Shown piece by piece: positions 3,001 to 9,000 of a stretch of DNA of 30,715 nt. The position numbers were made by a program. How positions within the stretch are numbered: the first letter of the stretch is position 1; each line of letters opens with the position of its first letter. The stretch lies in the IMG/VR virus record IMGVR_UViG_2703718822_000006. The stretch is one strand, 5' to 3'. Source of the DNA: a virus (Duplodnaviria; Heunggongvirae; Uroviricota; Caudoviricetes).

Positions 3001-6000
3001 AGGCAGACCACTGTCTGCATGACGTCATTGATATGAGTGGATTCAACCACCCACGGGCCGACCTGACAAAGGGGCAGTATGGTTGTGTGGGGCAGGGGCT
3101 GCATATTGCCAAAAAGCTTCTGCCGTTCATTCCGGTAAATGCAGGTATTCTCCTGGTTCCGTGCTGTCGTGGTGGCTCAGCATTCACCTCCGGAGATGAT
3201 GGCGCATTTACTGAGTCTACCGGTGCTTCCGCCAGCTCAGCCCGCTGGGGAGTGGGTAAACCGCTGTATCAGGATTTTCTCTTCCGTACAAAAGCGGCGC
3301 TGTCGAAGAACCCGAAAAACAGGCTTCTGGCCGTGGTATGGATGCAGGGGGAAAATGATCTTGCGGACGGCAGTCAGCAGCACAGCGGCCTGTTTACCAC
3401 TATGGTGCAGCAGTTCAGGGCTGATATGGCAGCATATTCTGCACAGTGCGTTGGCGGAAGTGCTGGCTCGGTGCCGTGGATTTGCGGTGACACCACGTAT
3501 TACTGGAAGAATCTTAACGCCGATAAATATGAGGCGGTATATGGCGGTTACAAGGGCAGGGAAGCACAGAATATTTTCTTTGTTCCTTTTATGACGGACA
3601 GCAGTGGTGCAAACACACCCACCAACAATCCGTCAGAAGACCCGGATATTCCGGCATCAGGATATTACGGTGCAGCCTCCCGGACGTCGGCAAACTGGAC
3701 GTCAGCAGACCGAGCGAGCCATTTCAGCTCATGGGCACGCAGGGGGATTATTTCCGACCGTCTGGCAACGGCGATTCTGGTGCATGCCGGGAGAGCCGCT
3801 GAATTCATTACCGGAAAACAGCCTGATACGGTGAAGCCCACAGGGTCTTCCGGTGAAGGTCCGGAGAGAGAGGCGGAAGCCCCGGTCAGTAACCGAACCC
3901 TGATGAGTCTGCTGGCGTCAGGCGAAGACCTGGCATCACAGGGCTGGCGCTATTATCACAAACCGGCGAGCGGAGACAGTATTGATAAAAACATCGCTGA
4001 GGCTGTGGTCAGTGATGAGGGTGCCACCGGTGGTAAGGCCCTGCAACTGAACAAACCGGAAAGCCACATCTGGTTTCTGGAGCATGATGCAGCCGGGCAG
4101 GGGGCAGAGTTACTGAAGAAAGGCGGACGTGTGAGCGTGCGGTTTAAGGTGCCGGGCTCACTGGTACAGAACCGGTTTGCCCTGGGTATTTACTGGCAGT
4201 TGTCGTCCCTGCCGGAGGGTGTGTCGCTGGCGGAGGAAGGCAACGACATGCTGATGTCCTTCTTCCTGCAGACGGATGCGACGAACCTGAACGCGATGTA
4301 CCACAAGACGCAGAATGCGAAGCTGGATACGTTCGGGGCATTTGATAACGAATGGCACACACTGTCTTTTGAGTTTGCCGGAAACAACAGTATTCAGGTG
4401 ACGCCGGTACTTGATGAGAAGCGGGGCACGCCATTCACGCTGGTGAAATCTCAGGCAACAGGGGTGGCGGATAAACTTCTGCTGACTGATATCACGAAGG
4501 TGGCAACGTATACGCTGCTGATTGACAGCGTGAAGGTGGAAGTGAACAACGCGGACGCCGCGGCATGATGAAAAAGGCCGCCAGCAATGAAGGAAAGGGA
4601 TGAACTTTTGTCCACTACATGAATGCTGGCGGCTGGTAAAACGATCATGATGACAGCGAAGTCTGGGTGTTTTTCTACAAAAATAAGTAAATTATGTCAA
4701 CTATAACGGTGAGAAAACATGACATTTCTGAACCAGTTAATGCTGTACTTCTGTACGGCGGTCTGTGTGCTGTATCTTCTTTCGGGTGGGTACAGGGCTG
4801 TGCGCGATTTCTGGCGCAGACAGATTGATAAAAGGGCCGCTGAGAAAATCAGCGCCAGTCAGTCAGCCGGAACCAGACCCGAAGAGCCGCTCATTTAGTT
4901 GCAATCTTCTTTACAACACCTTTCAACGAGAAAATCCCATGTCAGAAATAAAACCCCTGGTCACTGCTGAGGCAGTGAAAGACGCGCTGCGCTCAGAAGA
5001 TGTGCGTGGAGCACTGAAACAGAAAGTCCGCCAGACATTTGAAGCGCAGATAGAAGCGGAGGTGGATGCGATTCTGGATACGCTACTGGGCGAACAGCCA
5101 GAGCCGGAACCGCAACCGGAAGATATCACCTCAGAAAACGGCGATATTCAGCCGGAATCACCGGTGGTTGATGCGACTGAAGCACAACCCGAACCGGGCA
5201 CAATGCTGTAAAGGTGAGTCAGGGCCATCAGTAAAGTACTGCTGGCCTTTTTCATGTTGTGAGCTTCCGGATTGCGGGAGACGGGGTATGTACCAGATGG
5301 AAAAAATAACAACAGGTGTGTCATACACCACGTCAGCGGTGGGAACGGGCTACTGGTTCCTGCAGCTGCTGGACAGGGTTTCCCCGTCTCAGTGGGCGGC
5401 AATAGGCGTGCTGGGGAGTCTGCTGTTTGGTCTGTTGACGTACCTGACGAACCTGTATTTCAAAATCAGAGAGGACCGTCGTAAGGCGGCACGGGGAGAG
5501 TAGGTGATGAACCATGAAGAAATGAATCAGCGCTTCAGTCGTCTGGAAAATGAAATTGCTGAACTGAATAAAAAACTGTCGGCGCTGATGCCTTCTGAAG
5601 ATGAAAAAAAACGCCGCGATGAGCAGTTTGCTGCGTTTGACGATTATTGTCGGAAAGTGATGAGCAGAAATCTCGCAGAGTGTTTCAGTATTCATAATGA
5701 TAATTTCAGTGAGCTGGAATGGGAGTGTAACCGGCCATCCTTTGTTGTATCCGGTGATGCTGGGAAAATAACCATCTCAGAAAATGGGAAAGTAACACCT
5801 CCATCGCACCAGCACAGTGAGGAGCTCATTGAATTTGCCATTGATTACCTGAAGAACAATAAAAAGCAGGGGCTGATGAAGCGCGTTGGCCGTTGCATGG
5901 GATATCTTCAGGTAGCCGCTGAGATTGAAGCGCTGGCCAGTGGTGCTGATAAGGATGCAATTGTGCGGGAGGCTCTTCTTCGTGATTTTAATACTCCACC

Positions 6001-9000
6001 CTTTAAAAAAGTGCCGGCTTACTGGCTTCATCCGGGGCTGACTTATCTTAAAGTGCGTATTTAGTGGGCCAGGGACAGCGGCTGAATATTTAATATATCC
6101 ATGAACACCAAAATCAAATACGGCCTGTCGGCTGCCGTTCTGGCGCTGATTGCCGCTGGTGCGCCTGCGCCTGACATTCTCGACCAGTTTCTGGATGAAA
6201 AGGAAGGTAACCACACCACGGCATACCGTGATGGCGCGGGTATCTGGACCATCTGTCGCGGTGCCATTCTGGTGGATGGTAAACCTGTCGTCCCGGGCAT
6301 GAAGTTGTCGAAGGAGAAATGCGACCAGGTTAACGCCATCGAACGTGATAAGGCGCTGGCATGGGTGGAGAAAAACATCAAAGTGCCATTGACCGAACCC
6401 CAGAAAGCGGGGATCGCGTCATTCTGTCCGTACAACATTGGTCCCGGTAAGTGTTTCCCGTCGACGTTTTACAGACGAATTAATGCTGGTGATCGCAGGG
6501 GAGCATGTGAGGCGATTCGCTGGTGGATTAAGGACGGTGGCAGAGACTGCCGTATTCGTTCAAACAACTGCTACGGTCAGGTATCCCGTCGTGACCAGGA
6601 GAGCGCGCTGGCGTGCTGGGGTATCGACAGATAAGCAGAATATTTTGCTGAAAAATAAGGCATGGCCACGCGGGCGGATAACATGAAATCCTGCGAACTG
6701 GCGAAACGTAAGTGAATAAAAGTAAAAACCCCGTTTGTTGGCAGCAAGCGGGGTTTTGTTTTTATGGCAGTAAGCTATGGGAGGCTGCCTTGATTGATTT
6801 TAGCAAACTGATTAGGGAGTTGCGACTCATGATTAGTCAATTACCAAACTGGAAATTTTTGCTGGTCTGGAGCATCCCTTTTTTATGGGTAGTATCCCAG
6901 TTAATTGTGGCAATTAAGGGGTAGCTATGTCAGACAAACTCATAACGCCGGCAAAGGTCCTGTGTGTGATTGTCGGTATTTCATTTTCACTAATGCTGGT
7001 TGCTCTTTTTCTGTCCCTCGCCTGGGTGATGTTGTCTTCGTCGGGGCTGCTGGGGTGACAGTGACTGATGACATCAGCAGAGCGCTGGCTTTTGCTATTA
7101 AGTGGGTGGCTGTTGGTATTGCTGTGTCTCCGATGCTGTATGGGCTGGCAAAACTGGTCATTGCGCTGAAATCGTGAACTTTAAAAAGATGAGTGCTGAA
7201 CTTATTCGGGCAATGGCATTTGCCATTCGTATTGTGGCCATTGCTGTTCTGGTCTGGGCAATCCGTTGGTGGTGATATGAACCGTGTTCTGTGTGTGGTG
7301 ATTATTGTCCTGCTGGTAGCCTGTGGTGTGCTTAGTCTGGGGCTGAATCATTACCGCGATAACGCCATCACCTACAAAGCGCAGCGCGATAAAAAAGTCA
7401 GTGAGCTGAAACTGGCGAATGCCACTATTACTGACATGCAGCAGCGCCAGCGAGATGTCGCTGCGCTTGATGCCAGATACACGAAGGAATTAGCCGATGC
7501 GAGAGCTGAAATTGAAACTCTGCGCGCTGATGTTGCCGCTGGTCGTAAGCGCCTGCGGGTCAACGCCACCTGCCCCGGTACCGTGCGTGAAGCCACCGGC
7601 ACCTCCAGCGTGGATAATGCAACCGGCCCCCGACTGGCAGACACCGCTGAACGGGATTATTTCATCCTCAGAGAACGGTTGATGACAATGCAGAAGCAGC
7701 TGGAAGGGGCGCAGGAATATATCCGCACTCAGTGCCTGAAATAAGTTTTGTTGATGCGCCGTATCGTCGCTGTATTCCCTCATTAACAGAGACCGCAGCC
7801 CGACAGGGAGACTCCTCTGCGCGAGTGTGCGGGGATAATCAAAAACGATACACACCGGGGTTTACCGCGTAAACGGAGCGCGGCGTTGTCCCCTCATAGT
7901 CGCCTGTCCGGTGCGATGGTGGAAGAAATCGGGCTTTATTGCAATTGATAATCATTATCATTTTGGCGGGTCCTTTCCGGCGATCCGACAGGTTACGGGG
8001 CGGCGACCTCGCGGGTTTTCACTATTTATGAAAATTTTCCGGGATCCATGTCCGGTTTCCCTGCAAGTTAACTATATGAAAAATATAAAAACAGGCTTTC
8101 CGTGAACCGGACATGCGCAAAAAATGAACATGTAAACCGGACATGACCGGTTTTGTGTTGATTGTGAGGTGAGAGTTTTTGCGAGGTGAGGAGTGGCTAC
8201 CCAGACTGAAGTTGCCAGGCATTTAAGTCTGACCGACCGCCAGCTTCGCAGATTGCAGAAATTACCGGGTGCCCCGGTCTCGAATAAGCGAGGACAACTG
8301 GATCTGGATGCCTGGCGTGATTTTTACATATCGTATCTGAGGAGAAGTAAAAACGATGTGCCTGATGGCGATAGCGAAGAAGACTATGAAGAAAAGTTAC
8401 TTATTGCCAGATGGGAACTGACATCAGAACAGGCCGTTACACAACAGCTAAAAAATGAGGTGTCAAAAGGAAAACTGATTGACACCGGATTCTGTATTTT
8501 TGCCCTCAGCAAGCTGGCGATGGCATTGTCCAGTACGCTTGATTCTATTCCGTTATCCATGCAGCGACAGTTCCCGGATTTAACGCCACGTCATATTGAC
8601 CATCTGAAAACCCTTATTGCGAAGGGCGCAAATCAGTGTGCGCGGGCAGGGGATAAATTACCGGATTTGCTGGATGAATATATCAGAGCAACAACTGAAT
8701 AATATGATGGCTGCCGTTTCGGTTGCGCTGCAGCCCCTGGTCAGGATTGTGCCGATGACGGCAGTTGAATGGGCTGATCAAAATTATTATCTGCCTAAAG
8801 AATCCTCATACGGTGACGGCGAATGGAAAACGCTGCCGTTCCAGATCGCCATCATGAACAGTATGGGGAATGATCAGATCCGCACTGTTAATCTGATTAA
8901 ATCTGCCCGTGTTGGCTATACAAAGATGTTGCTGGGGGTGGTCGGGTATTTTATTGAGCATAAATCCCGAAACAGTCTGCTTTTTCAGCCCACGGATTCT

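Follow-up and report, generated by a model that had tools for sequence, protein, structure and literature searches.

An open reading frame between the pinholin and lysozyme genes of a lambdoid prophage and its place in the modular, YdfR-associated gene family

The DNA considered here is a stretch of 30,715 nucleotides (nt) from a virus of the Caudoviricetes (IMG/VR record IMGVR_UViG_2703718822_000006), below called the window, and represents the late region of a lambdoid, Stx-phage-type prophage. The C-terminal part of the antiterminator gene Q is followed by an AraC-family open reading frame (ORF), three tRNA genes, the STnc100 small RNA (sRNA) and a NanS-p-type esterase gene, and further downstream by DUF1378 and DUF826 ORFs, a holin gene, the ORF under study, a lysozyme gene, Rz/Rz1, Nu1 and terminase (Table 1). 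The ORF under study, hereafter the target ORF, is situated between the S21-type holin gene (S) and the R21-type lysozyme gene (R) on the same strand. An earlier reading made from the sequence alone (the sequence-only reading) had placed an ORF of 185 codons here, with a lower GC content than its neighbors and a start directly after the holin stop codon, and all of this was borne out. It is highly probable that the target ORF is a real gene, that it belongs to a modular family of YdfR-associated prophage genes, of which it has a shortened architecture, and that it is dispensable.

Read from the ATG at 5507, which is located 3 nt past the holin stop codon (5501-5503), the target ORF encodes 185 amino acids (aa), as in its RefSeq homologues, and a GTG at 5504 would give 186 aa; the stop codon lies at 6062-6064. 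The guanine-plus-cytosine (GC) content of the gene is 0.452 and thus below that of the flanking holin (0.546) and lysozyme (0.549) genes, and the values for third codon positions (GC3) are 0.435, 0.68 and 0.61, respectively. The minimum falls in the region of module B described below (0.41 over 5507-5730). When the 561 nt were shuffled, a stop-free run of at least 185 codons arose in none of 500 trials, the maximum being 175. Comparison with other 185-aa copies yields ratios of nonsynonymous to synonymous substitution rates (dN/dS) of 0.19, 0.23 and 0.36 (Fisher p = 3e-4, 1e-3 and 0.02, respectively), and a copy with 51% protein identity gives 0.25; the constraint is stronger in the C-terminal part (dN/dS 0.2-0.4). 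Because dN/dS is well below 1 and shuffled sequences never reach its length, the target ORF is a genuine coding gene. That it could be a frame open by chance and untranslated is hardly credible. Nothing but the missing functional annotation speaks for such a view, which is opposed by the shuffle test, the purifying selection, the conservation across genera, a strong Shine-Dalgarno (SD) sequence at the correct spacing and a confident predicted fold, and can be taken as excluded on this evidence. Two reverse-strand ORFs at 5333-5695 and 5777-6214 were also considered as true genes and rejected, as the substitution pattern fits the plus-strand frame.

The ORF had been described as unknown, but it is not an orphan. 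Its GTG-start translation matches PHROG 1085, a family of unknown function, at 2.5e-113, with residues 2-186 covering only profile positions 117-296 of 296. The protein corresponds to the C-terminal two-thirds of proteins of 287-296 aa annotated as 'YdfR family / DUF1327', which carry an N-terminal PF07041 domain (DUF1327) followed by target-like sequence at 86-88% identity over 98% of the query. These longer E. coli proteins, like gp05 of the Stx2-converting phage 86 (268 aa), are encoded at the same site directly after an S21-type holin gene, and they have a zipper and a C-terminal domain in common with the target protein (82-88% identity). However, DUF1327, the domain that gives the family its name, is missing from the target protein: PF07041 gives no match at E <= 0.1, the alignment puts the start of the ORF past this domain, and no DUF1327 is encoded elsewhere in the window. 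YdfR of E. coli K-12 (103 aa) is the reverse case, having DUF1327 without the C-terminal domain. The family is built of three modules, namely A (DUF1327), B (a short zipper) and D (a conserved C-terminal domain of ~110 aa), and the target ORF is the B+D form that lacks DUF1327.

The annotated counterparts of the target protein in RefSeq are the 'hypothetical protein' entries WP_001015159.1 and WP_062891728.1. Annotated 185-aa genes with 96-99.8% nucleotide identity occupy the same position in E. coli O157:H7 TW14359 and, at 4794841-4795398 of NZ_CP077646, in the Stx1c prophage of strain ST866; a Stx1c prophage is also the closest complete-genome match for this region. A search of 5.8 billion proteins returned 165 relatives, all named ones from E. 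coli, and when a HMMER profile was run against 1.84 billion representative proteins, only 43 matches were obtained, the distant ones of which (24-37% identity; Salmonella enterica where named) have only the last ~110 residues, i.e., module D, in common. A scan of bacteria and archaea with one genome per species detected the family only in Escherichia and Shigella, the Salmonella members having surfaced in the protein searches alone. The 185-186-aa forms fall into five 90%-identity clusters with 965 member sequences in total, and 879 of 5,426 complete E. coli genomes match, many of them having just the D part after a YdfR pseudogene. PHROG 1085 was matched by each of the ten D-domain sequences examined, down to 32% identity. 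Module D is a conserved domain without classification that occurs only in lambdoid prophages of Escherichia, Shigella and Salmonella, and the target ORF is a catalogued, common and uncharacterised prophage gene (PHROG 1085, YdfR-associated) rather than a new kind of insert. This comes close to homology with a routine lysis-cassette component, as the family is a regular occupant of the site, although its own function is uncharacterised. On DUF1327, the literature collection searched offered nothing beyond a mention in one paper on comparative genomics, with ydfR treated informatively only in one RNase E interaction study, and nothing relevant was found on genes between holin and endolysin or on hotspots in lysis cassettes.

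The features of the protein claimed in the sequence-only reading, namely an N-terminal coiled coil without a signal peptide or a recognisable catalytic motif, were confirmed. Residues F10-L13-I17-L20-L24-L27 form a clean 3-4-3-4 heptad pattern at the N-terminus, and no hydrophobic segment was detected (maximum 19-residue Kyte-Doolittle mean 0.75). Structure prediction with AlphaFold2 failed on a shallow alignment of E. coli sequences alone (predicted local distance difference test, pLDDT, 51), but reached a pLDDT of 80.4 once Salmonella relatives were added. The resulting model has long helices at residues 3-27 and 31-63, a disordered linker, a three-strand meander (79-97) and C-terminal helices at 101-117, 123-144, 151-161 and 176-184. 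Module B is mosaic among relatives, and phrog_2091 and phrog_15975 match this part only. Module D is basic (calculated isoelectric point, pI, 9.3) and is recognised by the motif HR..II..AI..L...KRLGRCMG(Y/L)LQVAAEIEA...DNPPFK..P..WI.PG..YLK.RI, with the variants H-x-x-x-I-I, KR(L/V)GRCMG, (D/N)xPPFK and W..PG. Its invariant positions are H103, I112, L115, K125, G128, L134, Q135, A137, E139, I140, P165, K167, W173, P176, G177, Y180, L181 and R184; most of these are structural residues (L, I, G, P, W, Y), to which H103, K125, Q135, E139, K167 and R184 are added, and the set looks structural or interface-like rather than catalytic. Scans of the target ORF against Pfam and NCBIfam found no family, the sole Pfam match being a chance-level Relaxase_C (E 0.045), and ten D-domain sequences compared with Pfam at E <= 5 gave nothing consistent, so that module D has no Pfam family. 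A profile search of the PDB sequences gave nothing under E = 0.19, no similar known fold was found for the protein or its D domain, and Rfam placed no RNA family in or near the slot. The target protein resembles no known lysis, defence or structural family.

Comparison with Salmonella indicates that the modules have been combined for a long time. Although no Pfam family covers the N-terminal domains of the Salmonella proteins, they match DUF1327-type domains in profile-profile comparison (probability 93%, E 2.5e-7), and the fusion of A to D is therefore old. Salmonella also has zipper+D proteins of 165-190 aa with 34-37% identity, and the A-less form is a stable architecture that is not confined to the window. 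In all seven Salmonella-type contexts examined (loci L087, L088, L091, L092, L094, L095 and L097), the homologue occupies the interval that separates the Q gene from a lysis cassette of class II holin, lysozyme and Rz. It closely precedes the holin gene, with no more than one or two small ORFs intervening, some of them in reverse orientation. The family thus keeps beside class II holin lysis cassettes in two genera and in two gene orders. The Q-holin interval of Salmonella also carries HicAB or ParE/helix-turn-helix (HTH) toxin-antitoxin pairs, a DUF4406 gene and a reverse-strand DUF1883 ORF.

The contents of the S-R slot were surveyed in 80 IMG/VR loci with a holin of at least 97% identity to that of the window; the lysozyme gene was also located in 71 of them. 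The slot is filled in 60 of these 71 cassettes. Module A alone is the most frequent state (35 loci, some with a small reverse-strand ORF), followed by B+D as in the window (11 loci, six intact and five frameshifted), A+B+D (eight) and A+D (four), and in two loci the slot is truncated by other insertions; in the remaining 11 the slot is empty, with S and R 1-4 nt apart. In the phage 21 paradigm of the pinholin/signal-anchor-release (SAR) endolysin cassette, S and R are adjacent. The statement that the two genes are normally adjacent or overlapping is therefore correct for that paradigm, but not for the lineage of the window. The slot is variable, yet dominated by one gene family in mosaic and truncated states, and recombination breakpoints lie inside the gene itself, where the D part can be identical and the N part diverged. 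The idea of a hotspot was accordingly right as to variability and recombination, but the slot is not open to diverse cargo, as it holds one modular gene and occasional reverse-strand ORFs.

Locus L004 has a B+D gene (1615-2256, 213 aa) followed by a separate 75-aa DUF1327 ORF (2284-2511), i.e., the opposite order split into two genes. In L013, L018 and L081, three IMG/VR copies that stem from a single genome and do not differ otherwise, the A6 run of the target ORF is shortened to A5, with a frameshift at codon 22 as the result; this contraction could be a sequencing error or a slippage-prone on/off switch. These three, differing only in a homopolymer run, make up three of the five frameshifted B+D copies.

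The junctions of empty and filled slots differ in the way the lysozyme gene is translated. In empty slots (L046, L051 and L072), the lysozyme gene starts 1-4 nt past the holin stop codon on the SD sequence embedded in the holin gene, and the protein begins with MSRK, MNRK or MSK. In filled slots (L005, L009 and L027), the YdfR-family gene holds this coupled position, and the lysozyme, beginning with MNTK, MNAK or MSAK, follows an SD-less leader. This suggests two cassette lineages with different translational coupling of S and R, and filling of the slot changes how the lysozyme gene is translated. The window has the second arrangement: the ORF had been said to end 36 nt before the ribosome-binding site of the endolysin, but the 36 nt (6065-6100) reach the start codon itself, and within them no SD sequence was found near the lysozyme ATG and the leader is without stable structure. 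The idea of an independent insertion with flanking repeats was considered and rejected, as the junction comparison shows no such signature, but the coupled and filled types instead.

The target gene is dispensable for lysis itself, since 11 of the 71 cassettes are empty, five of the 11 B+D copies are frameshifted, and among 50,697 deposited phage genomes the D domain is encoded in five records (four phages, all Stx2-converting), compared to 363 that match the S-ORF-R stretch (query 5200-6700). The lysis cassette of the window is complete without it, as S, R, Rz and Rz1 were all identified.

Table 1 Positions of the features of the lysis region and the target ORF in the window
Feature	Position	Strand	Evidence or remark
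Q antiterminator, C-terminal part	4..531	+	PF03589 Antiterm, 2e-29; start of the late operon holding the target ORF
NanS-p-type esterase	2577-4568		
S21-type class II holin, 71 aa	5288..5503	+	PF04971 'Bacteriophage P21 holin S', 9e-33; phrog_9876/phrog_20 'holin'; pinholin by homology
Shine-Dalgarno sequence GGGGAGAG	5493..5500	+	Within the 3' end of the holin gene; read from the sequence, junction comparison
Target ORF, 185 aa + stop	5507..6064	+	B+D form within the modular, YdfR-associated family; GTG at 5504 as alternative start
Module B, aa 1-63	5507..5695	+	Heptad zipper and second helix, predicted helical hairpin
A6 run within the target ORF	5570..5575	+	
A8 run	5604-5611	+	30 nt beyond the A6 run
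Module D, aa 75-185	5729..6061	+	Conserved C-terminal domain, predicted three-strand beta meander and four helices
Spacer, 36 nt, up to the lysozyme start codon	6065..6100	+	A/U-rich, unstructured
R21-type lysozyme	6101..6634	+	PF00959, 1.4e-24; SAR-like N-terminal segment
Rz spanin	7277..7744	+	PF03245, 4.5e-51
Rz1, embedded in Rz	7497-7682	+	PF06085, 1.7e-21

The N-terminal segment of the lysozyme, YGLSAAVLALIAAGAPAP, is weakly hydrophobic and rich in Gly, Ala and Ser, as is typical for a SAR domain. Between Q and the esterase gene lie the AraC-family ORF (1091-1804), the genes for tRNA-Met/Arg/Arg (1833-2084) and STnc100 (2194-2402), and stx genes are absent from the usual Stx-phage site (1-2577). 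A second variable stretch is found between the lysozyme and Rz genes (6635-7276). It contains a strong terminator-like hairpin at 6725-6757, with a 15-bp stem and a T-rich tail, and small hydrophobic ORFs at 6712-6924, 6927-7058 and 7102-7275 for which no Pfam match was found; other phages carry ant/Roi or unrelated small ORFs in this stretch.

From the anatomy of the locus, the target ORF would be transcribed from the Q-dependent late promoter, and the claim that it is a coding gene on the late transcript is upheld as regards coding, with late transcription being probable. It would be translated by coupling to the holin gene, since its start lies 3 nt past the holin stop codon and its SD sequence inside the holin gene; when the slot is empty, the lysozyme gene would take this holin-coupled position. 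A consensus scan revealed no sigma-70-like site on the plus strand between 4500 and 8300, which is not proof of absence, and the sole hairpin seen was a weak one near the end of the target ORF, within its 3' part. As there is no promoter-like site in or before it, no expression of the target ORF is expected in the lysogen.

The product would be a soluble, cytoplasmic protein that oligomerises via its short leucine zipper. It looks soluble and non-enzymatic because it has no hydrophobic segment, a D domain with a pI of 9.3 and invariant residues that are mostly structural, and the basic D domain would most likely bind a protein or RNA partner. Our best guess is that the protein is soluble, oligomeric and dispensable, acts by binding, and is made late together with the lysis proteins. 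The explanation that best covers the whole, a B+D form of a YdfR-associated late gene whose product is a soluble binder tied to lysis physiology, has about an even chance of being right. As a working guess, the gene would modulate lysis-linked physiology late in infection, i.e., the timing or efficiency of lysis or the amount of lysozyme, possibly by simply uncoupling lysozyme translation from the holin; this functional part taken alone is tentative and rather doubtful.

P1 LydB and T4 RIII are soluble holin regulators encoded beside holin genes. Like these, the target protein is small and would be helical, cytoplasmic and made with the holin, a possible analogy for a role in lysis timing. However, the target matched no lysis-category PHROG at E <= 0.01 in a profile scan, which is not a pairwise comparison, and, unlike rIII and lydB, the target gene is missing from many otherwise near-identical cassettes. 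The core features of lysis components, namely a membrane segment, a muralytic domain or Rz/Rz1, were not found in the target ORF, nor did Pfam and PHROG scans return a lysis family.

Several observations weigh against the favored explanation of the target ORF. The variation behind the dN/dS values may partly stem from full-length A+B+D genes and have been moved later by recombination; over the D part, the window and a 296-aa gene are identical in nucleotide sequence, whereas the N part of that gene has a synonymous divergence (dS) of 0.45. The adjacency to lysis genes could just reflect a 5' region of the late operon that tolerates accessory genes; in E. coli phages this region houses stx and nanS-p, and in the Salmonella loci toxin-antitoxin pairs of the HicAB or ParE type. 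The gene is often frameshifted and is rare among deposited phage genomes, which suggests a weak contribution to lytic growth.

An alternative, proposed in the sequence-only reading, is moron-type cargo for conflicts between mobile elements (superinfection exclusion, abortive infection or anti-defence) carried on a strong late transcript. Like the morons of lambdoid late operons (stx, nanS-p, bor and the Salmonella toxin-antitoxin pairs), the target gene is non-essential, compositionally distinct (low GC and GC3), mosaic, with internal recombination breakpoints, and located between Q and the morphogenesis genes; toxin-antitoxin pairs stand at the neighboring Salmonella positions, and unrelated reverse-strand ORFs occur in slot variants, one of which weakly matches the PADLOC candidate PDC-S51 (1.6e-5). 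However, in contrast to such genes, the target ORF appears coupled to the holin, no promoter or terminator belonging to it was seen in the consensus scan, and the same family recurs in 60 of 71 cassettes, whereas morons typically are diverse cargo. No PADLOC-DB v2 (2023 models) match at E <= 1 was obtained for the target ORF, the 213-aa form or the 338-aa Salmonella form, and the 296-aa form gave only a chance-level match to PbeC (E 0.018). Exclusion and defence genes act in the lysogen, where the target ORF is not expected to be expressed, and late timing is ill-suited to anti-defence. We therefore consider the cargo explanation improbable, and a role in defending the lysogen is less likely than a lysis-linked one. 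For the three roles proposed in the sequence-only reading, i.e., lysis timer, exclusion or abortive infection, and anti-defence, no positive evidence emerged from the PADLOC search, the scan for an internal promoter or the search for a lysis PHROG.

The reverse-strand ORFs of the slot (90-233 aa) are better candidates for cargo expressed in the lysogen than the target ORF. They were seen in L014 (4454-5155), L023 (1619-2071), L010 (5037-5351), L004 (2516-2866), L003 (2890-3222) and L027 (4531-4803), all on the minus strand, running against the direction of the late operon, and without a significant Pfam match, and in L014 and L082 a 233-aa reverse-strand gene stands in place of the D domain.

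A different explanation starts from the partner module, to which the only experimental lead, an indirect one, relates. YdfR of K-12, a DUF1327 protein from the Qin prophage, was shown by two-hybrid and co-purification experiments to bind residues 1-597/598 of RNase E, and the YdfR eluate was rich in DNase-resistant nucleic acid (PMC13232886). The family could thus act on host RNA metabolism, with DUF1327 docking on the catalytic half of RNase E and the zipper and basic D domain binding either RNA or another partner, so that host or late phage transcripts would decay at an altered rate; the A-less protein of the window would keep only the D-side activity or, alternatively, pair via its zipper with full-length paralogues of co-resident prophages. 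The conserved fusion of A to D in E. coli and Salmonella and the pI of module D agree with this, and the arrangement in L004, a B+D gene followed by a short DUF1327 ORF, suggests that the modules cooperate even when split. On the other hand, the window offers no DUF1327 at all, nothing ties the D domain itself to RNA, and overproduction of YdfR altered few transcripts (PMC13232886), so that an action of the family on host RNA metabolism is regarded as unlikely. A screen tying ydfR to envelope integrity is cited in the same study (PMC13232886).

The target ORF may also be an evolutionary remnant. After deletion of DUF1327, the B+D frame would still be translated from the inherited holin-coupled start without a function of its own, and its sole effect would be to separate the lysozyme gene from the ribosome-binding site of the holin gene. 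This would fit the five frameshifted B+D copies among 11 in the IMG/VR sample, the many complete E. coli genomes with only an unannotated D part behind a YdfR pseudogene, the rarity of the D domain among deposited phage genomes and the SD-less lysozyme genes of filled slots. Such decay does not sit well with dN/dS values well under 1 among the 185-aa copies, with 965 sequences in clusters of 185-186 aa, or with the independent zipper+D forms kept in Salmonella, and three of the five frameshifts, all from a single genome, may be sequencing errors. A remnant is, on balance, quite improbable.

Finally, the D domain might be a dedicated cytoplasmic partner of class II holin/SAR-lysozyme cassettes and a new type of soluble lysis regulator, which is compatible with the data because the family lies near such cassettes in two genera and two orders and appears coupled to the holin. 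Lysis timing or lysozyme supply would then be coupled to the state of the cell, possibly via the RNase E-binding DUF1327 in the full-length forms. This is a long shot.

Taken together, the finding is real but ordinary. What is gained is the A/B/D architecture, a family alignment and a usable structure model, not the discovery of a new kind of system. Among the E. coli prophages sampled, most pinholin-type cassettes have a YdfR-family gene between S and R, which takes over the ribosome-binding site coupled to the holin. Should the gene or its product influence when lysis occurs or the dose of lysozyme, burst size would be affected and, in Stx phages, also the timing of toxin release. If it has no role in lysis, it is still a widespread, probably late-expressed gene with an unclassified conserved domain, whose partner domain DUF1327 is reported to bind RNase E.

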